A stretch of 43,738 nt of DNA, taken from contig MRSU01010728.1 of the NCBI GenBank assembly GCA_008369845.1, forward strand, positions 1 to 43,738. Direction: 5' to 3'. The translations under genes were made by a program, and so were the position numbers. The notes under the pieces were generated by a model. It had not been told where the DNA came from. It searched no databases and saw nothing but the letters and a program-made list of their open reading frames with translations. Source of the DNA: Trichomonas gallinae (Eukaryota). Below, piece by piece: positions 34,715-43,738 of the stretch. Positions within the stretch are counted from its first letter, which is position 1. Every line of letters begins with the position of its first letter.

Positions 34715-35362
34715 TTAAAAGAAGAGAGCTGATAATAGTGATAACCTACTCACATAAATACAGCTTTCATGAAATGTTGGACATTTGTAAACTTGTAGAG
34801 ATTGAATTTTTTGAACTGATTTTGAACAAAATGTTGAATTGTTGTAGTTAGGAAGTACATAAACAGTTCCATTAACGAGCTTTGTTAAGCAGTTTGGCGA
34901 CATTCCTGCAAAATAAATTGATTCAATTGTATTACAGGAAGTGAATAGATCTTGTCCTATCGATGTAACTGATGCTGGAATTCTGATCGATTTAATTGAG
35001 CTACCAACACCAAATGAAACTCCAAGAGATGATAAAGAAGAATCTGCATCAAAATAAATATTAGTAAGATTATAGCACCAATCAAAGGCATAGTTTAAGA
35101 ATGTTGTAACAAAGCGCGGTATTCTTGCTGTTTTAATTTGTGAAAATCGAAAAGCTTCATAACCAACAACAGTAACTGTATAAATTGTTCCACCATATGT
35201 AATTGTATTAGGAATTTCGAGATGAATATTTGTTTCGCTTTTGTTGATAAATGCATTTGAATTTAGAGAATTGTTAATGGCAATTGACTGATTGACTGTT
35301 CCAATAGTCGCTATGGTTCCTAATATAACATAATTAAACAGCCCAACTTGGACAATAGTCAT
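34715..35362 (-). CDS. Short BspA-like (TpLRR) surface protein with a canonical ATG and a hydrophobic C-tail
   Basis: LEIPNTITY..TIYTVTVVGYEAF and IPASVTSIGQDLFTSCNTIESI repeats. C-terminus KCPT...LSLLSALFF. ATG at 35360-35362. Confidence 0.8.
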   Translation of the reverse strand: MTIVQVGLFNYVILGTIATIGTVNQSIAINNSLNSNAFINKSETNIHLEIPNTITYGGTIYTVTVVGYEAFRFSQIKTARIPRFVTTFLNYAFDWCYNLTNIYFDADSSLSSLGVSFGVGSSIKSIRIPASVTSIGQDLFTSCNTIESIYFAGMSPNCLTKLVNGTVYVLPNYNNSTFCSKSVQKIQSLQVYKCPTFHESCIYVSRLSLLSALFF

Positions 35363-36014
35363 CAAAAACTATAAATGTTAGCAAAATCAAATTTCTATGA
35401 AAATTTTGAGATTAAAAGATTTTTAAAATATCATCTATTGCATGAAATCAGACAGATATAACCAAAATTAAAGCCAGCGGATTCAACCTTGTCAAAAATT
35501 AAAGAAGATTGATTTTCATAAGGTGTTAATCAATTAATTGAAAATTTTCTTTTTTGAAAATATAATAGCATCCTTTTTAGACATTGATATGTATTTTTTC
35601 TTCATATATATTAGATATTATATGCATAATAATTAGTTTCTAAAATAAATCATTAAAATTTGATTTTTCACTTTTAAACTATCTATCATGATCCCTTCCT
35701 ACAATATGATAGGGGTATATTTCTAATGTTATTGTTTTAAGTATGTATTTGTTTGCTCATCCAATATGATTTGAAATTGAAATAAAAATGGATAAATTTT
35801 TCACCCACTGAAGAAGAAAATCGAGCCAAAAATCATTTTATTTTTATAGAAAATATAATGTCATTGTTTACATTCGAAAGAAAAAAATCGAAAAATAAAA
35901 TTTGAATTATTTTTCTAGAAATGTGATTATATATAATAGTATTTGGAAGCAAAATAGGAAAAATTGTTTTGAAGAGTTTAACGCAATTTTTTTTAAAGAT
36001 TTAAAAATTTTATT

Positions 36015-36911
36015 ATGGTGAAACCAATCTCCACATCTTTCGAGATTATACCCAAAAACATATCACTGTACACATCAGACCCTGAATTTGCTAAATGCAG
36101 AACCAAAGATGAACTATGCAAAATTTTGGATTTTGCTCAGATCAAGCTGAATGACTTCACTCATCTTGTAAATAATCTCACTGCAGTTCATGACAAGAGT
36201 TCAATACTAAAGATATTGCGCAATGGTACTATTGATTACTCCGATCTTGATGATGAATATCATAAAATATCAAAATCATTAGAAATAATCTCGTCATCGC
36301 TTGACATCAAGTTAATATTAGACATATCGCATATAATCCAGCATAAAAGCAAAGAACAATCAATACATTCTCAGGATGATAACGAAAATTAAATTCGAAA
36401 ATTCAGATAAACATACTAACTAACATTGGTCTTAAATCAGAAAAGTTCAATGAAATTTACGATATATTGAATTGCGTGCTCTTAATAATGACACACAAAC
36501 AATAAAGTATGCTGTTCAAAATGATTTCATGTCAATACAAAACGATAATCTTGATAATATTTTAACTTTTGCTGCTTCAGAAAACAATTTAAATCTAGCG
36601 AAGATGCTTGTTGAAGCTAGTGCTGACTACACTTATAATCGAGCATGTGGACAAAACTGTTTGTTTTGGTTCACAAAAATTGGCAATTTTGATGATATAG
36701 TTTTATTTGCATCTTTGGGGACATAAATCCTCCAAATGAATTCGGGTTGACAACAATAATGCTTTGTTGCAAATATGATTACTATGATGTTTGCCAGTAT
36801 CTATTAACATTTCCTACAATAATTGATGCTGTTACACAATCCGGTCAAACAGCATTAAAACTTTGCAAATCAAATGGGATGAAAAGATTGATGGCAGACA
36901 ATATAAAATAA
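36015..36911 (+). pseudogene. Disrupted ankyrin-repeat protein gene
   Basis: A 125-aa ORF ends in TAA at 36390. Ankyrin segments follow in other frames (NILTFAASENNLNLAKMLVEASAD; then, after a shift at ~36720, DINPPNEFGLTTIMLCCKYDYYDVCQYLL...SGQTALKLC) ending at TAA 36909-36911. Confidence 0.75.
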
Positions 36912-36985
36912 ATAAAAAAATCAAAGTGATATGTATATTTGTGTCATACTTTAAATATTAATGGTATACAAAGTTTGTAATTTTT

Positions 36986-37918
36986 CTACATGGGAATAAA
37001 AGGATGCAATAATAACATGTATGACATGAATGGAAAAGTCATTAAGTAGTTCTCTCGAATTGTCTGACATTTAGGATAAAAGCATTGCAATTGACGATCA
37101 ATACTAACTGCCCTATTCAAAAATTTGGAAGATATGTAATTTTGGCAAACAAATATTTGACAAGAGATATCTAAAGGTAAACTAATTTGATTTTGTATCA
37201 TAATTCCTGCATAGTAAAGTTCAATTAAATTTTTTGCATCAATGAATGCATATTGATTAATTTTTGAATTCCCAGTAATTTCTATCTTTTTAATTATAGA
37301 ACCTTGGCATAGTTTATACGGAATCTCCTCGACATAAGGAGGAATTAATAAATATTCACAGTGTGAATTGCTAAAGCAGAATTCTGCGATTTTAATGCAA
37401 CGAAAATCAATATCAATATGTTCAATAATCGGTAAAACTTCAACTAAAATTGTTCTGTCAATTGAATAAATGATTGAGTTATTTATTGCGAAATAATTTT
37501 TATTATTCTGTGAAATAATAATAGAAGTAAGCAATGTGTTATAACCAAATGGACTGTCGCCTAAATAAATAACGGAATCTGGAATCGTTATTGATGTAAA
37601 TCGACAAGAAGCAAAGCAAAGAGTTCCTAAATATTTCAATCCATGAGGTAATTCGATATTGGTGGATAGTTTTGATAAATCAAATGCTTGTGATGAAATA
37701 TTAACTAGGGAATTAGGTAATTTTACAGACTTGATAGTATCTTTCTGATAAAATGCACGAGTAAGTATTTCTGTAACAGGATATGTAATGGATTTGTATA
37801 CAACTTCCGAAGGAATTTCGAGATTTTCTGGGCATTCGCCATTACATTGTTCAACACCTGCTTTGCGTGCTGCTGTATCAACAATATATTTTAAATTTCC
37901 ATCAATAAAGCTTGTTAT
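36986..37918 (-). CDS. BspA-like (TpLRR) surface protein, 310-codon frame that begins at ATA (no AUG start)
   Basis: Manual translation extends the ORF call by 93 codons to ITSFIDGNLKYIVDTAARKAGV...LEIPSEVVYKSITYPVTEILTRAF, bounded by TAA at 37919-37921. The first in-frame Met is near codon 240. Confidence 0.75.
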   Translation of the reverse strand: MTSFIDGNLKYIVDTAARKAGVEQCNGECPENLEIPSEVVYKSITYPVTEILTRAFYQKDTIKSVKLPNSLVNISSQAFDLSKLSTNIELPHGLKYLGTLCFASCRFTSITIPDSVIYLGDSPFGYNTLLTSIIISQNNKNYFAINNSIIYSIDRTILVEVLPIIEHIDIDFRCIKIAEFCFSNSHCEYLLIPPYVEEIPYKLCQGSIIKKIEITGNSKINQYAFIDAKNLIELYYAGIMIQNQISLPLDISCQIFVCQNYISSKFLNRAVSIDRQLQCFYPKCQTIRENYLMTFPFMSYMLLLHPFIPM

Positions 37919-38094
37919 TTATATTACATTTTATCATTGATGAAAATTCCAATGAGGCATAAAACTGTCACATTTTAATTTAAACGTGCCAAATAATGCG
38001 CCTGTAAGGGTCCACAGACAGAGTTAATGAGGGGGTGACACCAAAACAATCCTGGGTAGCTACCCATGATGAAAATATTGATAAAATGCAACAC

Positions 38095-38438
38095 ATTTCC
38101 AAAGCAGCAAAATGCGATTTTGGTAAAACATCATATATCAATTGAGTTATTTATTGCAAAATAGTTTTTATTATTTGGCGAAATAGTAATATATGTAAGC
38201 ATTTCATTATAGCAAAATGGACGATCGCCTAAATAAACAACGGCTTCTGGAATCGTGACCGATGTAAATTTAAATATCGACAAGATGCAAAACAAAGGAA
38301 ACTTAAATATTTCAATACATTAGGCAATTCGACATTTGTGGGCAATTTTGATAACTCAAATGCTTGTGACTGAACACCTGCTTTTCATGCTGCTGTATCA
38401 ACAATATATTTGAAATGTCCATTAATAAAACTTGTAAT
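38095..38438 (-). pseudogene. Decayed third copy of the BspA-like tandem array
   Basis: Collinear with 36986-37918 but has a premature TGA in the AARK motif, a ~160-nt internal deletion, a 7-nt insertion near 38270 and a 3' truncation. It begins at ATT in the position equivalent to the ATA of its neighbours. Confidence 0.85.
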
Positions 38439-38541
38439 TTAAATTTTGTTTTATCATAAATGAAAATTCCATAAAATTTTTGTAAATATTTACAAATTAA
38501 AAGTGACAATAAAGTCAATATTGTTGATCATAAAAATTTAT

Positions 38542-39483
38542 TTAATCATCACAAATAGTTGCCATCCATATTGCACAGTATAAATTGGAATGTTGCATTA
38601 TAGGATTGAATTCTTCATCAATATATGTTTGACATTTTGGGCAGAAACATGGAATTTTATTATCTATTCTAACGTCACGATTTAATAAAGTCAGAGAGTC
38701 GTAATTTCGGCATACAAATATTTGAAAAGAATTCTCTTGATACATTTCGTATTCATTTTGGACTTCAACTCCTGCATAGCTAAGTCTACTTAAATTATAA
38801 GCATGATAAAATGCGTTTTGATCAATTATCGAATTACCTTCTATGTCTATCGATTTAATATATGATTCTTCACATAATTTGACCGGAATACTTTTAACAT
38901 ATTTAGGAATTGACAAATACTCGCACTTGCTAAAACTAAAACAAAATGCTGCAACTCTTATACATTTATGATAAATCTCGATTTTTTCAACATGAGGCAA
39001 AACTTCGATCAAAACAGTTCGATTCATCGAATAAATTATCGAATTTTCTATTGCGAAATAGTTTTTGTTATTCGGAGAAATATTGATAGTAGCAAGATTT
39101 CTGTTGTATCCAAATGGACAATCGCCTAAATATGTGACCGAATCTGGAATTGTCACAGATGTGAAACGACAAGAAGCAAAACTAAGAGTACCAATCCTTT
39201 TTAGACCACTAGGAAATATTGGAGTTGTTGGTATAAATGAAAGATCGAAAGCTCCATCAGAAATATTTACTAATGAATCTGGAAAAGTAACTGATTTAAT
39301 TCCAAAGCATTTATAAAATGCATGCTGATCTATTTCAGTAACTGGATATCGAACTGAATTATAAATAACATCAGATGGAATAATAAGATTTTCCGGACAA
39401 GCAGTGTTGCACGATTTGACGCTTGCTTTTCGTGCAGCTGTGTCAACTGTATAATTTAAATTTCCATCCGAATAACTTATTAT
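38542..39483 (-). CDS. BspA-like (TpLRR) surface protein, 313-codon frame that begins at ATA (no AUG start)
   Basis: Manual translation extends the ORF call by 109 codons to IISYSDGNLNYTVDTAARKASV..., bounded by TAA at 39484-39486. Inr-like TCAT lies ~10 nt upstream. The first in-frame Met is codon 153. Confidence 0.75.
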   Translation of the reverse strand: MISYSDGNLNYTVDTAARKASVKSCNTACPENLIIPSDVIYNSVRYPVTEIDQHAFYKCFGIKSVTFPDSLVNISDGAFDLSFIPTTPIFPSGLKRIGTLSFASCRFTSVTIPDSVTYLGDCPFGYNRNLATINISPNNKNYFAIENSIIYSMNRTVLIEVLPHVEKIEIYHKCIRVAAFCFSFSKCEYLSIPKYVKSIPVKLCEESYIKSIDIEGNSIIDQNAFYHAYNLSRLSYAGVEVQNEYEMYQENSFQIFVCRNYDSLTLLNRDVRIDNKIPCFCPKCQTYIDEEFNPIMQHSNLYCAIWMATICDD

Positions 39484-40189
39484 TTATCTGGATGAAATTC
39501 CACAATAAAGCGTTGAAAAAGTGCCACTTTTATGTACTGTAAATCATTCAATTATATGAATAACTTTCCGAAGTGCGATTTTTTTTTACTGCCAGACCTT
39601 ACTGCCATTTAGGTTGTTTTACTGCAGGCTTGGCATGTTTACTTTCAAAATCTAACTTTTTGATAAATTTCATTAAATTAAAAATAATTTAATGAACAAG
39701 AAATATATACATTTCCATACATTTTAAGGTAGAAAATGCACAGAAATTGAAATTTGCTTATTTTCATTTCTGAAATTTTCAATTTTGAATTTCGTTGATT
39801 TCTTAGTGATTTCATTTTAAAACATATAATATAAATCATTTATTGGTTCTATATATATATACGCTTGTAGAATTTTCAAGATTTTTGCGCTTAATATTAC
39901 CTGTGATAGAAACTTTTATAATGAGGGAAAACATTAAATGCCTTGTTTTTTAAGCTATGAAATCAATAAAATATTATGTATGCAATGTAAACATGTGTTT
40001 AATATAGATTAGAACGAATTCTAAATGACCGCTGATGATACGAAAACGTCACTTTTCTTATTTTAACCTTAAATTTATAGTTCAACAGGCTTCAAAATTT
40101 TGATGATTTTGGAATATTTTAGCAGTAATAAGCTTATATTCGAAATTTCAGCAGAAGGCGGATAAAATCATTGTCACTTTTTCGATAGA

Positions 40190-41329
40190 ATGCAGGTTGC
40201 ACGTCCAACAATTAAACCAGTACCTCAACAAGTAAATCGTCCGCGTTTTCAGGCAACTACTCCTCGTCCACAAGTTAAGCATACGAACACATTTAGACCA
40301 ATGTCTCGCTCACCTCCTCCCTTCGAATCACCGTCATCGGTGCAACACAATAAAAAACTCGAAGAAATATTCGGCCCACAGGCACAGCTCCAACAATCAA
40401 CGAATGTCAATTTATTATCGCGCGGAATTTCATTATTATCAATCACACAACTCAGAGATTTGCTTCGAGACTACTCTCTTCCCACGGGAGGCAACAAAAA
40501 TGTTCTTGTCAATCGCTTAATTATATTTTTAGAAACTTTCGGACAAAATCAACAAAATATTTTGACTCAATTCTCATCGAAACTTAAAAGGCTTCTATCG
40601 ATCGAGGTTGATGAGGCAAACGCTTCATCACCACAAAGTGAAGAGACTTCACCACTACCAGCACCGCCAGTATCTCAAAATTTACCGGAAGAAGTTACAG
40701 AAAAGTTAATAGCTACATCACCATCGCCTCTCTATGAGCCAACAGAACTCCCTCCTTCACTTGGACCGATCCTTGTCCAACCAGATAATATGAAAATGTT
40801 ATATCCTTTCAGTTTATCATCTCAAGAGTTCATACCAATTCTCCAGTTTACACCAAGCTTTTCCCAAGTATTACTTTCTCGAGTTGTCGTTCAAATCAAT
40901 GGCACATTTATAAATCTTCGCGGTCCTTCCTTCTTTACCGATCTAAAGGACTACGCAGGCCGTCAATGCACACTCCAAGTTGTGTCTGTTGAGCCAGCAA
41001 GTCCGGTTGTTGCTGTTGTCAGATGGGTAAAACAAGTACCAATTCAACACATGATAAATCATATTGCGATGAAAGAACCAGTGAAGAAAGTTCCATTGTC
41101 ACCAAACCAGACAATAAACGGAGTCTGCCCGCTGACACACAAAATAATAGCAAGGCCTGCAAGAGGAGTAAACTGCATGCATCCTGAATGCTTCGACATG
41201 TCCGGCTTTATTTGCCACGCGATGAAGACTAACTCTTGGCAGTGCCCTGTTTGCAGGAAGCCAGTCCCAATCGATGAGCTGAGGATTGACCCATACTACT
41301 TTGCTATTGCTAGCGGATCTGTTGTTTGA
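40190..41329 (+). CDS. SIZ/PIAS-type SUMO E3 ligase (SAP plus MIZ/SP-RING)
   Basis: SAP domain LSITQLRDLLRDYSLPTGGNKNVLVNRL and SP-RING CPLT...PARGVNCMHPECFD...WQCPVC. GTCACTTT at 40173-40180. Confidence 0.9.
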   Translation: MQVARPTIKPVPQQVNRPRFQATTPRPQVKHTNTFRPMSRSPPPFESPSSVQHNKKLEEIFGPQAQLQQSTNVNLLSRGISLLSITQLRDLLRDYSLPTGGNKNVLVNRLIIFLETFGQNQQNILTQFSSKLKRLLSIEVDEANASSPQSEETSPLPAPPVSQNLPEEVTEKLIATSPSPLYEPTELPPSLGPILVQPDNMKMLYPFSLSSQEFIPILQFTPSFSQVLLSRVVVQINGTFINLRGPSFFTDLKDYAGRQCTLQVVSVEPASPVVAVVRWVKQVPIQHMINHIAMKEPVKKVPLSPNQTINGVCPLTHKIIARPARGVNCMHPECFDMSGFICHAMKTNSWQCPVCRKPVPIDELRIDPYYFAIASGSVV

Positions 41330-41396: not shown

Positions 41397-42452
41397 CTAT
41401 TCTGAATCTAGTCCAGTGTATAGACTAAGTATATACGAATTTGATCCGTGAGAATTTACGACGTTGTTGCATGTAACTGCTGCATATTTAGTGTTCAACT
41501 TTATTTCAGCATAACAATCGAATGAAGATAAATGTGGAAGAAGGTTCATTTCACTTGTCGTCACAATGAAACATGTTGTGAAGGTTCCTCCTTCGTATAA
41601 ATAATATTGAGAATTATCAATATTACAGTGATTGATGTAGAAATTTCCATAGGTATTTAAAGCAAATGGTATTCCTTTTCCATATGGACCTTGTATCGAA
41701 CAATTTTTAAGAATAACATCTGAATAATAACCTCCAAATATTATTCCATAACTAGATGTTTCTTGACTATTTTTTATTATGTTACACGCAACATTCTCAA
41801 AATTACCATAATGACTATAATAATGATATAAACAAGCATAATTTTTTGCAATATTTCCTTCAAATGTACAATATTTATTCAAAGCTGTGCCTTTTGGTCT
41901 ATTATAATAGAATCCTGAATAATAATTAGCAGAATTCCTAGAAATATTCGATGAATGCATCTCAATATTGCCGCGATATGAATAAATCAAGCCATTGTAC
42001 TTTTCTTGATTACAATTTGTTATACATGAATCAATTATATGACTTTTATAATTAGTATTTTCTATATTTAACGAAACAAATGAATAAAAACCAAGATTAT
42101 TTGATGTAATAATATTATTAAACGAACAAAACCTATGTTGGATGATATTACTCTGGCAATTAAAATATATAGCTCCGCCATTGTTGCTTCTTGAACATTT
42201 AGTAAAAAAGCAGCTGGAATGGAGAAATTTAAAATTATCAGATGTTATTATAATAGAACCAGATGTTTGGTCATGAAATATGCCTAGATAAACATATATT
42301 TCATTCTGGTTTGTAGGAATATTACAATTGTCACAAACATCGACAAATTTACTACCTTTATATGAGTCACAGTAGAATTCTTTCCAAACATCTAAAGGAG
42401 CTTGATCTTTATGATAATATAAAATAAGTTGGGAAAGTAAATCATCATTGGA
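41397..42452 (-). CDS. Cys/Asn/Tyr-rich beta-helix-like (GGAIY, Pmp-like) putative surface protein, copy A, 351-codon frame with no AUG start
   Basis: The frame stays open 154 codons upstream of the ORF call (…ILYYHKDQAPLDVWKEFYCDSYKG…NGGAIYFNC…). It is preceded in frame by ATG TAA at 42458-42453. Confidence 0.7.
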   Translation of the reverse strand, partial: SNDDLLSQLILYYHKDQAPLDVWKEFYCDSYKGSKFVDVCDNCNIPTNQNEIYVYLGIFHDQTSGSIIITSDNFKFLHSSCFFTKCSRSNNGGAIYFNCQSNIIQHRFCSFNNIITSNNLGFYSFVSLNIENTNYKSHIIDSCITNCNQEKYNGLIYSYRGNIEMHSSNISRNSANYYSGFYYNRPKGTALNKYCTFEGNIAKNYACLYHYYSHYGNFENVACNIIKNSQETSSYGIIFGGYYSDVILKNCSIQGPYGKGIPFALNTYGNFYINHCNIDNSQYYLYEGGTFTTCFIVTTSEMNLLPHLSSFDCYAEIKLNTKYAAVTCNNVVNSHGSNSYILSLYTGLDSE

Positions 42453-42468
42453 TTACATTAAAAATAAT

Positions 42469-42501: not shown

Positions 42502-43527
42502 TTATTCAACATATGCAATTGTATTCAGACTATTTATATATAAATTTGTTCCTTTAACAGGAACGTCATTGTTGCATGAATAAATGTTTTTGTTATAAAT
42601 GTTTATCAATCTTTTTTCTGCATAACATTCAAATGAAGATAAATGTGGAAGAAGATTCATTTCGTTTGTTGTCACAATGAAACATGTTGTGAATGTTCCT
42701 GCGTTTAAATAATGTTGCATGCTATCAACATTGCAATGAGAAATAAAGAAATTGCCATAATTTAAAGCAAACGGACTTCCAGATCCATATGGACCCAAAA
42801 TAGAGCAATTTTTAAGTATAATATCGGATGAATCAGCAAATATTATTCCATAACTAGATGTTTCTTGACTATTTTTTATGATATTGCATGCAGAATTTTC
42901 AAAATTTCCAAAACCACTATTATAATGATATAAACATGCATAATTTTTTGCAATATTTCTTTCATATGTACAATATTTATTTAATGCTGTGCCTTTTGGA
43001 TAATAATAATAGAATCCTGAATAACAACTAGCAGAATTCCTAGAAATATTCGATGAATGCATCTCAATATTTCCTCGAATTGAATAAATCAACCCATTGT
43101 AATTTTCTTGATTACAATTTGTTATACATGAATCAATTATATGACTTTTACAGTTAGCATTATCTATTTTTAGATGAATATATGAATGAAACCCTTGACC
43201 GTTCGAAATTATTATATTATTCGAACAAAATCGGTGTTGAATTATAGAACTCTGGCATTCAAAATATATGGCTCCTCCATTTCCAGATCTGGAGCATTTT
43301 GTGAAAAAACAACTGGAATGGAGAAATTTATAATTATTTGAACTAATAGAAATAGAACCAGAAGATTGGTCATGAAATATGCCTAGATAAACATATATTT
43401 CATTCTGGTTTGTAGGAATATTGCAATTGTCACAATCATCGACAAATTTACACCCTTTATATGAGTCACAGTAGAATTCTTTCCAAACATCTAAAGGAGC
43501 TCGATCTTTGTGACTATATAGAATAAA
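42502..43527 (-). CDS. Cys/Asn/Tyr-rich beta-helix-like (GGAIY, Pmp-like) putative surface protein, copy B, 341-codon frame with no AUG start
   Basis: The frame stays open 145 codons upstream of the ORF call (FILYSHKDRAPLDVWKEFYCDSYKG…NGGAIYFEC…). An in-frame ATG at 43555-43557 is cut off by TAA at 43528-43530. Confidence 0.7.
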   Translation of the reverse strand, partial: FILYSHKDRAPLDVWKEFYCDSYKGCKFVDDCDNCNIPTNQNEIYVYLGIFHDQSSGSISISSNNYKFLHSSCFFTKCSRSGNGGAIYFECQSSIIQHRFCSNNIIISNGQGFHSYIHLKIDNANCKSHIIDSCITNCNQENYNGLIYSIRGNIEMHSSNISRNSASCYSGFYYYYPKGTALNKYCTYERNIAKNYACLYHYNSGFGNFENSACNIIKNSQETSSYGIIFADSSDIILKNCSILGPYGSGSPFALNYGNFFISHCNVDSMQHYLNAGTFTTCFIVTTNEMNLLPHLSSFECYAEKRLINIYNKNIYSCNNDVPVKGTNLYINSLNTIAYVE

Positions 43528-43738
43528 TTAGATATAGGAAATACTATAAAATGACATTTAAAAATAATGTCACTTTTGTATTTTCAATTTCAGAAGTGAT
43601 TTTTTGCGAATTTCGAACTAATTTTAAGGGTGCACCTATTTTGGTTCAAAACAACTATAAAATCGCATTTTTAGAAATAATCTCTATTGTGTCTGATGTT
43701 ATTATTTAGCTTGAAACTTCACTCAAAATCCGTATTTT

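Follow-up and report, generated by a model that had tools for sequence, protein, structure and literature searches.

Translation initiation at near-cognate codons has been described, for example, at the AUU of open reading frame (ORF) I of rice tungro bacilliform virus and at the ACG of Sendai virus C', and in most of the known cases, as they are presented in PMC3542737, the codon has a strong context or is followed by a hairpin, the product often being an extended form of a protein that also starts at AUG. According to the same source, AUA permits 2-30% initiation in other systems. In the 43,738 nucleotides (nt) of Trichomonas gallinae analysed here (assembly GCA_008369845.1, contig MRSU01010728.1, positions 1 to 43,738, hereafter the window), two BspA-like frames, copies A and B, open with ATA directly after an in-frame TAA. 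They resemble the viral cases in the presence of an in-frame near-cognate codon at a conserved N-terminal edge, with an out-of-frame AUG downstream that would catch scanning ribosomes, but they differ in their weak context and in that a chromosomal gene for a surface protein would have no start other than the AUA, which makes them candidates for initiation of this kind. Inefficient AUA initiation at codon 1 of A and B, already proposed in a preliminary description of the window, would be the best single explanation of these frames, a tentative one that is given slightly less than an even chance, while the argument formerly drawn from the alignment with the ATG at 35362 is weak. This reading is favoured because the leader of A has no ATG in a second strain either, because there is constraint before the first ATG, because a domain boundary falls at codons 1-3, and because no other near-cognate codon is shared before an out-of-frame AUG at nt 17.

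The closest described proteins are those of the BspA family of Trichomonas vaginalis, which, like the copies in the window, have the LRR_5 domain, tandem clusters of paralogs and cysteine-bearing hydrophobic C-termini, often with neither a signal peptide nor a transmembrane helix (PMC2843621, PMC6701047). In the passages of these two papers that deal with Met-less BspA entries, the entries are treated as mis-annotated or as fragments, and a non-AUG start is not proposed. A further likeness is found in the split or readthrough genes of Trichomonas, which include intact-looking multicopy families, BspA among them, that break the AUG-to-stop rule (preprint 10.64898/2026.08.31.748405). These genes, as described there, have an AUG followed by an internal stop or shift, whereas A has no upstream in-frame AUG; readthrough gave a negative result where it is reported as tested in PMC4223856. 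Finally, the msg-I/UCS/CRJE system of Pneumocystis also comprises intact surface-antigen frames that have no start of their own and begin at the mature N-terminus. In the account of PMC5676039, however, the msg-I genes have no promoter and share an identical junction of 33 bp, whereas A and B have promoter-like motifs and no identical junction.

The second strain, X1, comes from a DNA-type run labelled bird metagenome, the only run listed as containing this DNA, with no RNA run among the matches; the longest of its pieces listed for this stretch are about 83-93% alike. The copies and the codons in question are the following, with the basis of each in brackets.

38542..39483, minus strand: copy A, a BspA-like frame of 313 codons with an ATA opening after an in-frame TAA (Pfam LRR_5, likely X1 ortholog)
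39481..39486, minus strand: in-frame TAA and the ATA proposed as the start of A (X1 has the same TAA and ATA, followed by GTA as codon 2)
36986..37918, minus strand: copy B, a BspA-like frame of 310 codons with an ATA opening after an in-frame TAA (Pfam LRR_5, 62% identity to A)
37916..37921, minus strand: in-frame TAA and candidate start ATA of B (sequence)
38140..38438, minus strand: copy D, a decayed paralog of B with ATT at the homologous place (tblastn, three-way alignment)
34715..35362, minus strand: copy C, a BspA-like gene of 215 codons that starts with ATG and belongs to a distant subfamily, with no in-frame signal peptide (Pfam LRR_5, BLASTP, profile)

Copies A, B and C all exceed the cut-off of Pfam LRR_5 (PF13306; 27.7 bits), with 79.7, 82.6 and 79.9 bits, respectively, and the best stretch covers residues 49-153 in A (E 2.2e-22) and 49-143 in B (E 2.9e-23), with an E of 2e-22 in C. 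The first in-frame ATG is found only at codon 153 of A and codon 240 of B, and the whole of the best LRR_5 stretch ends at or before these codons.

The ATG-less start of A is real and not an assembly error, given that the second strain keeps the ATA without an ATG. A single X1 contig (3325 nt, depth 26) spans A and the neighbouring SAP/MIZ gene, and is likely to be orthologous to the A locus because it carries both genes. Over positions 39091-39541 this contig differs from the window by 14 substitutions and one 4-base insertion at 39515, which is outside the frame, with no in-frame indel. The TAA-ATA of A and the motifs at 39492-39501 and 39523-39530 are kept, the differences that flank the start being at 39480 and 39512; an ATG that is present in the window at 39547 appears as ACG in X1, in a loose contig end that was aligned by eye. 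Since X1 shares it, the loss or absence of the A start is, on this comparison, older than the split of the two strains.

Over codons 1-131, the two strains show 13 differences in A, four of them synonymous and nine nonsynonymous, the latter being I/V, N/K twice, D/E twice, Y/F twice, K/Q and S/N. None of the 13 is radical (BLOSUM62 < 0 or a stop), where 5.2-5.4 would be expected when the same spectrum of base changes is placed 100,000 times (P 0.0007-0.0009), in a test that was picked post hoc, after the changes had been seen, from among four statistics. With the four further differences of the loose end, one of the 17 is radical against 6.6-7.1 expected (P 0.001-0.002). The remnant of an ankyrin-repeat gene at 36015-36910, used as the local yardstick for near-neutral divergence, differs between the strains at 67 of 896 nonsynonymous sites, compared with 9 of 301 in A (Fisher P 0.004), and the synonymous sites of A (4 of 92) are no different from those of the remnant (P 0.39).

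The paralogs extend this comparison to a greater depth. The dN/dS of A versus B is 0.22 over codons 1-286 and also 0.22 over codons 1-60, with a dS of about 1.4, a divergence that shows that the codons before the first ATG were long under selection, although it does not give the date of this selection. The leaders of B and D are gap-free and of equal length, differing at 6 of 32 nt, and the coding parts of the same pair have an omega of 0.17 (P 9e-7 against 1; dS about 0.67) over the 94 of 149 codons that remained once the gapped codons and one D codon pair containing a stop had been left out. Given that B and D share the leader and yet have this low omega, the ATG-less arrangement was either carried under selection or arose twice. 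A parsimony count, with 7 of 12 changes synonymous (P 0.009), had suggested that B was selected once it had separated from D, but this count was set aside after the branch model described below. It is quite probable that selection at the protein level acts, or acted until lately, on the ATG-less frames.

The position of codon 1 can be judged from the N-termini. The four that were aligned in the preliminary description, i.e., MTIVQVGLFNY (35362, ATG), ITSFIDGNLKY (37918, ATA), IISYSDGNLNY (39483, ATA) and ITSFINGHFKY (38438, ATT), are confirmed, as are the G7 and Y11 common to all four and the TAA directly before the three non-ATG codons of A, B and D. The shared taaAT context is real in so far as it marks a homologous place in all three copies, but the TAA is the stop that bounds the frame, and the context is thus shared partly by construction. 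Copy D was rightly called a pseudogene, with a stop at codon 18, large deletions and frameshifts, and its ATT is uninformative as support for a near-cognate start, given that the copy is dead. The placement of codon 1 at the exact position of the ATG of C holds for G7 and Y11, but the register of the domains is otherwise weak and C is distant: BLASTP of C against B aligns only from residue 47 of C, with 25% identity.

A profile of codons 1-75 of A and B matched 31 domains among 177 library proteins, with the equivalent of codon 1 being internal in 26 of them, at residues 19-30 in five and at residues 1-3 in none. In the residue 19-30 cases that were inspected (P0053, P0080 and P0086), this equivalent stands directly behind a signal-peptide-like leader. 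An N-cap profile was made from 20 of the 31 domains (at most two per protein), which, having been found with the A/B profile, are not fully independent of it; its match begins at codon 3 in A, at codon 2 in B and only at residue 40 in C, although the envelope in C begins at Met1. From this alignment with the library domains, G7 and Y11 would be residues of the N-cap and codon 1 would be the edge of the domain, and C plausibly starts at the same edge, by a weak match. A start at the N-cap edge is possible because trichomonad BspA proteins, as reported in PMC6701047, often have no signal peptide. A third intact relative, P0001/P0028 (58% to B), has its called start Met at about family position 59, as might be expected if it too lacks an N-terminal ATG, and it is known from the protein only.

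The searches for homologs returned no family member with a readable N-terminus among 27 matches, only one of which (P0001) was close, and none of these matches was a named trichomonad protein. A search with residues 1-70 confirmed none of four candidates, a further one gave mostly long repeat proteins among its best 150 matches, again with no named trichomonad protein, and searches of metagenomes confirmed 0 of 56 and 0 of 319 stretches as members of the family. None of the nine window proteins looked for was present in the protein collection, the Atlas matches being generic LRR_5 clusters.

Codon 1 is surrounded by the following motifs and ATGs, among which those resembling the initiator (Inr) element are called Inr-like.

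39492..39501, minus strand: leader motif GGAATTTCAT of A, with an Inr-like TCAT (its A at -10), unchanged in X1
39523..39530, minus strand: AAAGTGGC, one letter off the M2 promoter motif AAAGTGAC as given in PMC4223856, unchanged in X1
37940..37950, minus strand: leader motif GGAATTTTCAT of B, with the Inr-like A at -23 (sequence)
38460..38470, minus strand: leader motif GGAATTTTCAT of D, with the Inr-like A at -23 (sequence)
37935..37937, minus strand: out-of-frame ATG of B at -19 relative to codon 1, with an overlapping frame of 11 codons (sequence)
37929-37924, minus strand: second upstream ATG of B, 11 nt before codon 1, with a TAA directly after it (sequence)
38455..38457, minus strand: out-of-frame ATG of D at -19 relative to codon 1, with an overlapping frame of 11 codons (sequence)
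39465..39467, minus strand: out-of-frame ATG at nt 17 of the A frame, with a stop after three codons (sequence)

The TCAT reported upstream of the ATA at 39483 does have its A 10 nt before that codon, with no ATG in between, and the Inr-like site of A is present as claimed, although its TCATC is one letter off the HCAHW consensus (as given in PMC7370421). On the other hand, the -19 ATGs of B and D, which are one base out of frame, and the ATG-TAA at -11 of B had been omitted. The leader motif GGAATTT(T)CAT occurs five times in the window against 0.67 expected, and none of 100 shuffles reaches five, an excess that reflects conservation and not independent occurrence, given that three of the five are the paralogous leaders of A, B and D.

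The out-of-frame ATG at nt 17 is also found in B (37902-37900), and is the first AUG that would be met by a ribosome that scans past codon 1. Given this ATG in both copies, a start in place must lie in codons 1-5 or follow reinitiation. Within codons 1-30, the in-frame near-cognate codons are codons 1 and 2 in A, and codons 1, 5 and 12 in B; as X1 has no near-cognate codon at position 2, codon 1 is the only one common to A, its X1 allele and B, and an AUA start there is thus the simplest single model. In this model, A and B would be transcribed from the Inr-like TCAT site in their own leaders, and the AUA at codon 1 would be recognized by the initiator tRNA. The yield would be low, since most of the scanning ribosomes would bypass codon 1 and reach the out-of-frame AUG at nt 17; in the case of B, they would meet the cap-proximal AUGs first. 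The resulting BspA protein would start at the N-cap itself and have no signal peptide, as in the ATG-started C. The role that the preliminary description proposed for such a start, low or variable expression of antigens, would be speculative.

Four further ways of reading the frames do not fit or are unlikely. The reassignment of AUA to Met does not agree with the paralog pairs, in which ATA stands against ATT or ATC in 11 and against ATG in 0 of 37, nor with the library homologs, which have Ile opposite in 21 and Met in 2 of 52, and AUA is, on these counts, Ile in elongation. The use of TAA as a sense codon is unlikely, with 10 of the 16 ATG-started genes of the window ending in TAA. Readthrough does not account for A, which has no upstream in-frame ATG and whose upstream neighbour is on the other strand. 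The introns of trichomonads, as described in PMC12316389, have a CTAA branch site fused to the 3' end, and none of the candidate introns that would restore the frame, 32 for A and 60 for B, has such a site fused to its AG.

A number of observations weigh against AUA initiation, beginning with the sequence around the codon. A strong context is not found, with T at -3 in A, B and D, where 11 of the 16 ATG-started window genes (starts picked by eye) have a purine; the +4 position is A in the copies of the window and G in the X1 allele of A. A stable hairpin about 14 nt downstream was sought over 90 nt, and there is no shared structure (z -2.0 in A, +0.1 in B and -0.8 in D). Two AUGs precede codon 1 in B. 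In T. vaginalis, alternative starts are apparently not used, according to section 7 of PMC4223856, where the labels of the supplementary figure show one construct, and 98 of the 911 BspA entries counted in PMC2843621 are annotated as pseudogenes, eight entries having no starting Met.

The evidence for present-day selection has also to be set against the post hoc choice of the radical-change test and against several estimates that go in the other direction. The maximum likelihood omega of A/X1 (0.40) is not different from 1 (P 0.15), and the pN/pS is 0.69, or 0.98 with the loose end. The long-term omega of 0.22 is itself rejected for A/X1 (P 0.043 and 0.004), which points to selection on A being weaker than formerly. 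The rest of the X1 piece (38372-39090) has 58 differences over 719 nt and 21 gap letters whose place was not seen, so that in this strain A may be disrupted in its 3' half. In the case of B, the branch model could not place the node, and an omega of 1 was not rejected (P 1.0). A control by codon position from the UAA-transporter gene (19 of 27 differences at third positions) was dropped, as the contig piece is far more divergent and may be a paralog.

The reading that best survives beside AUA initiation, possible though doubtful, is that A and B became pseudogenes when small 5' lesions removed their start, and have not yet decayed, with the -19 ATG as the old start, whose trace would be the ATG ATA AAA of B and D and a similar remnant in A. 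The compatibility of the A/X1 dN/dS with neutrality would fit this, as would the branch model, which does not show selection on the B branch, and the more divergent 3' half of A in X1 with its unplaced gaps nearby. Moreover, the chance of finding no stop among 13 random changes is 0.56, the decayed sister D and the broken ankyrin gene adjoin the two frames, and BspA pseudogenes are common in T. vaginalis, as reported in PMC2843621. Neither A nor B has internal stops or frameshifts, however, and the absence of radical changes, together with fewer nonsynonymous differences than in the ankyrin remnant, is not what decay would be expected to leave, though the lesion is shared with X1. The same one-base offset would be needed separately in B and D, and the sole visible lesion of two 310-codon frames would have to fall in the first 25 nt. 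A close paralog that might homogenise A was not found at an identity of at least 84% (1 contig in X1).

Distinctly unlikely is a second alternative, in which A and B would be silent cassettes that begin at the mature N-terminus and gain an ATG and a leader by recombination into an expression site, in a manner similar to that of Pneumocystis msg-I. Codon 1 corresponds to the first residue after the signal peptide in the relatives P0053, P0080 and P0086, and A and B have 80% identity over their first 60 nt, where the other 60-nt windows have 47-80%; a second family of the window (42452 and 43527, see below), with a 97%-identical 5' block, also has no full frame opened by an AUG. Cassettes would not, however, be expected to have the Inr-like motif found on each copy or the M2-like motif of A, unchanged in X1, and the copies do not share an identical junction. 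The lack of a signal peptide in many trichomonad BspA proteins (PMC6701047) and the Met of C, at the edge of the domain, also count against this reading.

Still less likely is a start at the cap-proximal -19 ATG followed by a one-base frameshift in the first codons of B, and formerly of D, with A either dead or using some other route. At a dS of about 0.67, B and D still have the ATG ATA AAA and the spacing of 19 nt in common, and 923 frameshift-split genes are reported from T. vaginalis in the preprint 10.64898/2026.08.31.748405, where translational frameshifting is raised as a possibility. On the other hand, A has no such ATG in either strain, and yet provides the best evidence of constraint, while the stop that closes the upstream frame of B and D is not found in the same frame of A, and the -19 ATG is only 1-4 nt from the likely cap site. 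Finally, the provision of the AUG at the RNA level, through an atypical intron, trans-splicing or AUA editing, is the least probable of all. In its favour, frame-restoring GT/GC..AG pairs exist by chance (32 in A and 60 in B, with a GTWY donor in 3 and 10), and a donor-like GTACAT at 39537 is unchanged in X1. Against it, all of these pairs lack the CTAA branch site, the upstream ATG of A is apparently not kept in X1, and codons 1-15 are homologous to the start of a protein domain and hence are not an intron. We know of no enzyme in trichomonads that edits mRNA by converting AUA in this way.

Beyond the BspA-like cluster, two paralogs of a surface-type family with no Pfam match lie on the minus strand at 41397-42458 and 42502-43557 (here the 42452 and 43527 genes). 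Each has an ATG behind the M2 motif AAAAGTGAC and then, at codon 2 or codon 10, a TAA in the same frame, after which 351 and 341 codons remain open (pN/pS 0.27), with the first in-frame Met at 165 and 156. In their relative P0178, the start Met is right at the conserved PxDVW motif, and the X1 depth over the two genes is about ten times the single-copy depth. Where the mature region begins (42280-42400 against 43380-43500), two consecutive 60-nt windows of the pair have an identity of 97%, which is reached again in one later window, the coding parts being 70-90% identical elsewhere, which may reflect either patchy gene conversion or a constrained block.

Four of the five unbroken surface-type frames between 34700 and 43600 thus have no full frame opened by an AUG, with the break in the first ten codons or in the leader, a pattern that random decay would rarely give, in a window that was chosen for it. 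One possible but rather unlikely reading is that the trichomonad has a loose selection of start sites across its surface families, with an AUA start in A and B and reinitiation or readthrough in the 42452 and 43527 genes. If this were true, many apparent pseudogenes would be a translated, low-level antigen repertoire that is cut short by gene callers.

The window as a whole is AT-rich (GC 23-45% per kb), with long, unbroken eukaryotic genes, several of which have the M2 motif AAAGTGAC or Inr-like sites upstream (motifs as given in PMC4223856 and PMC7370421), features that, taken with the BspA cluster, point to a trichomonad. Single-copy genes occupy 4074-33885, i.e., a TOR-like kinase (4074), a Dzip-like protein (16791), an MT-A70 methyltransferase (23046), protein kinases (24992 and 31179) and a UAA transporter (32815), and the SAP/MIZ protein is at 40190. 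The family to which A, B and C belong suggests a surface location or a role in adhesion, although they have no in-frame signal peptide. Just upstream of the ATG of C, at 35369-35383 (minus strand), GCTAAC...TAG resembles a branch site and acceptor, with a spacing longer than that of trichomonad introns, and a GTWY donor is found in neither of the two frame-restoring intron candidates. The ankyrin-repeat gene at 36015-36910 (plus strand) is split into several frames, and additional sequence is present in the X1 contig near position 36390. Positions 38000-38070, where copy D ends on its 3' side, form a GC-richer segment with a 14-nt palindrome, TGGGTAGCTACCCA, which is probably a dispersed repeat or small mobile element, given an X1 depth of up to 351 at 38046. 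A dispersed short repeat is found upstream of A, at 39758-39791, where 11-13 X1 contigs match, with loose ends on both sides.

Trichomonad genomes contain thousands of intact-looking "pseudogenes" and split genes, and it is disputed whether the ribosome bends the AUG-to-stop rule, given that the part of PMC4223856 that concerns translation reports neither alternative starts nor readthrough, and that the preprint 10.64898/2026.08.31.748405 argues for readthrough from RNA data. The A and B loci offer a short and defined test case, with a leader of 10 nt, one candidate codon and an AUG trap six codons further on, the candidate codon being kept in two strains and a deep paralog. These loci would make the disputed question directly testable, although the case for them comes from a comparison of sequences with a single second strain. 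A literature search, from whose scope most subscription journals fell outside, found no report of non-AUG initiation for a chromosomal gene of a trichomonad. If AUA initiation is true, it would be an unreported route for the synthesis of surface proteins in trichomonads, the repertoires of BspA proteins would have been under-called and truncated by gene finders, and the choice of start codon would be a possible control on the level of surface antigens.

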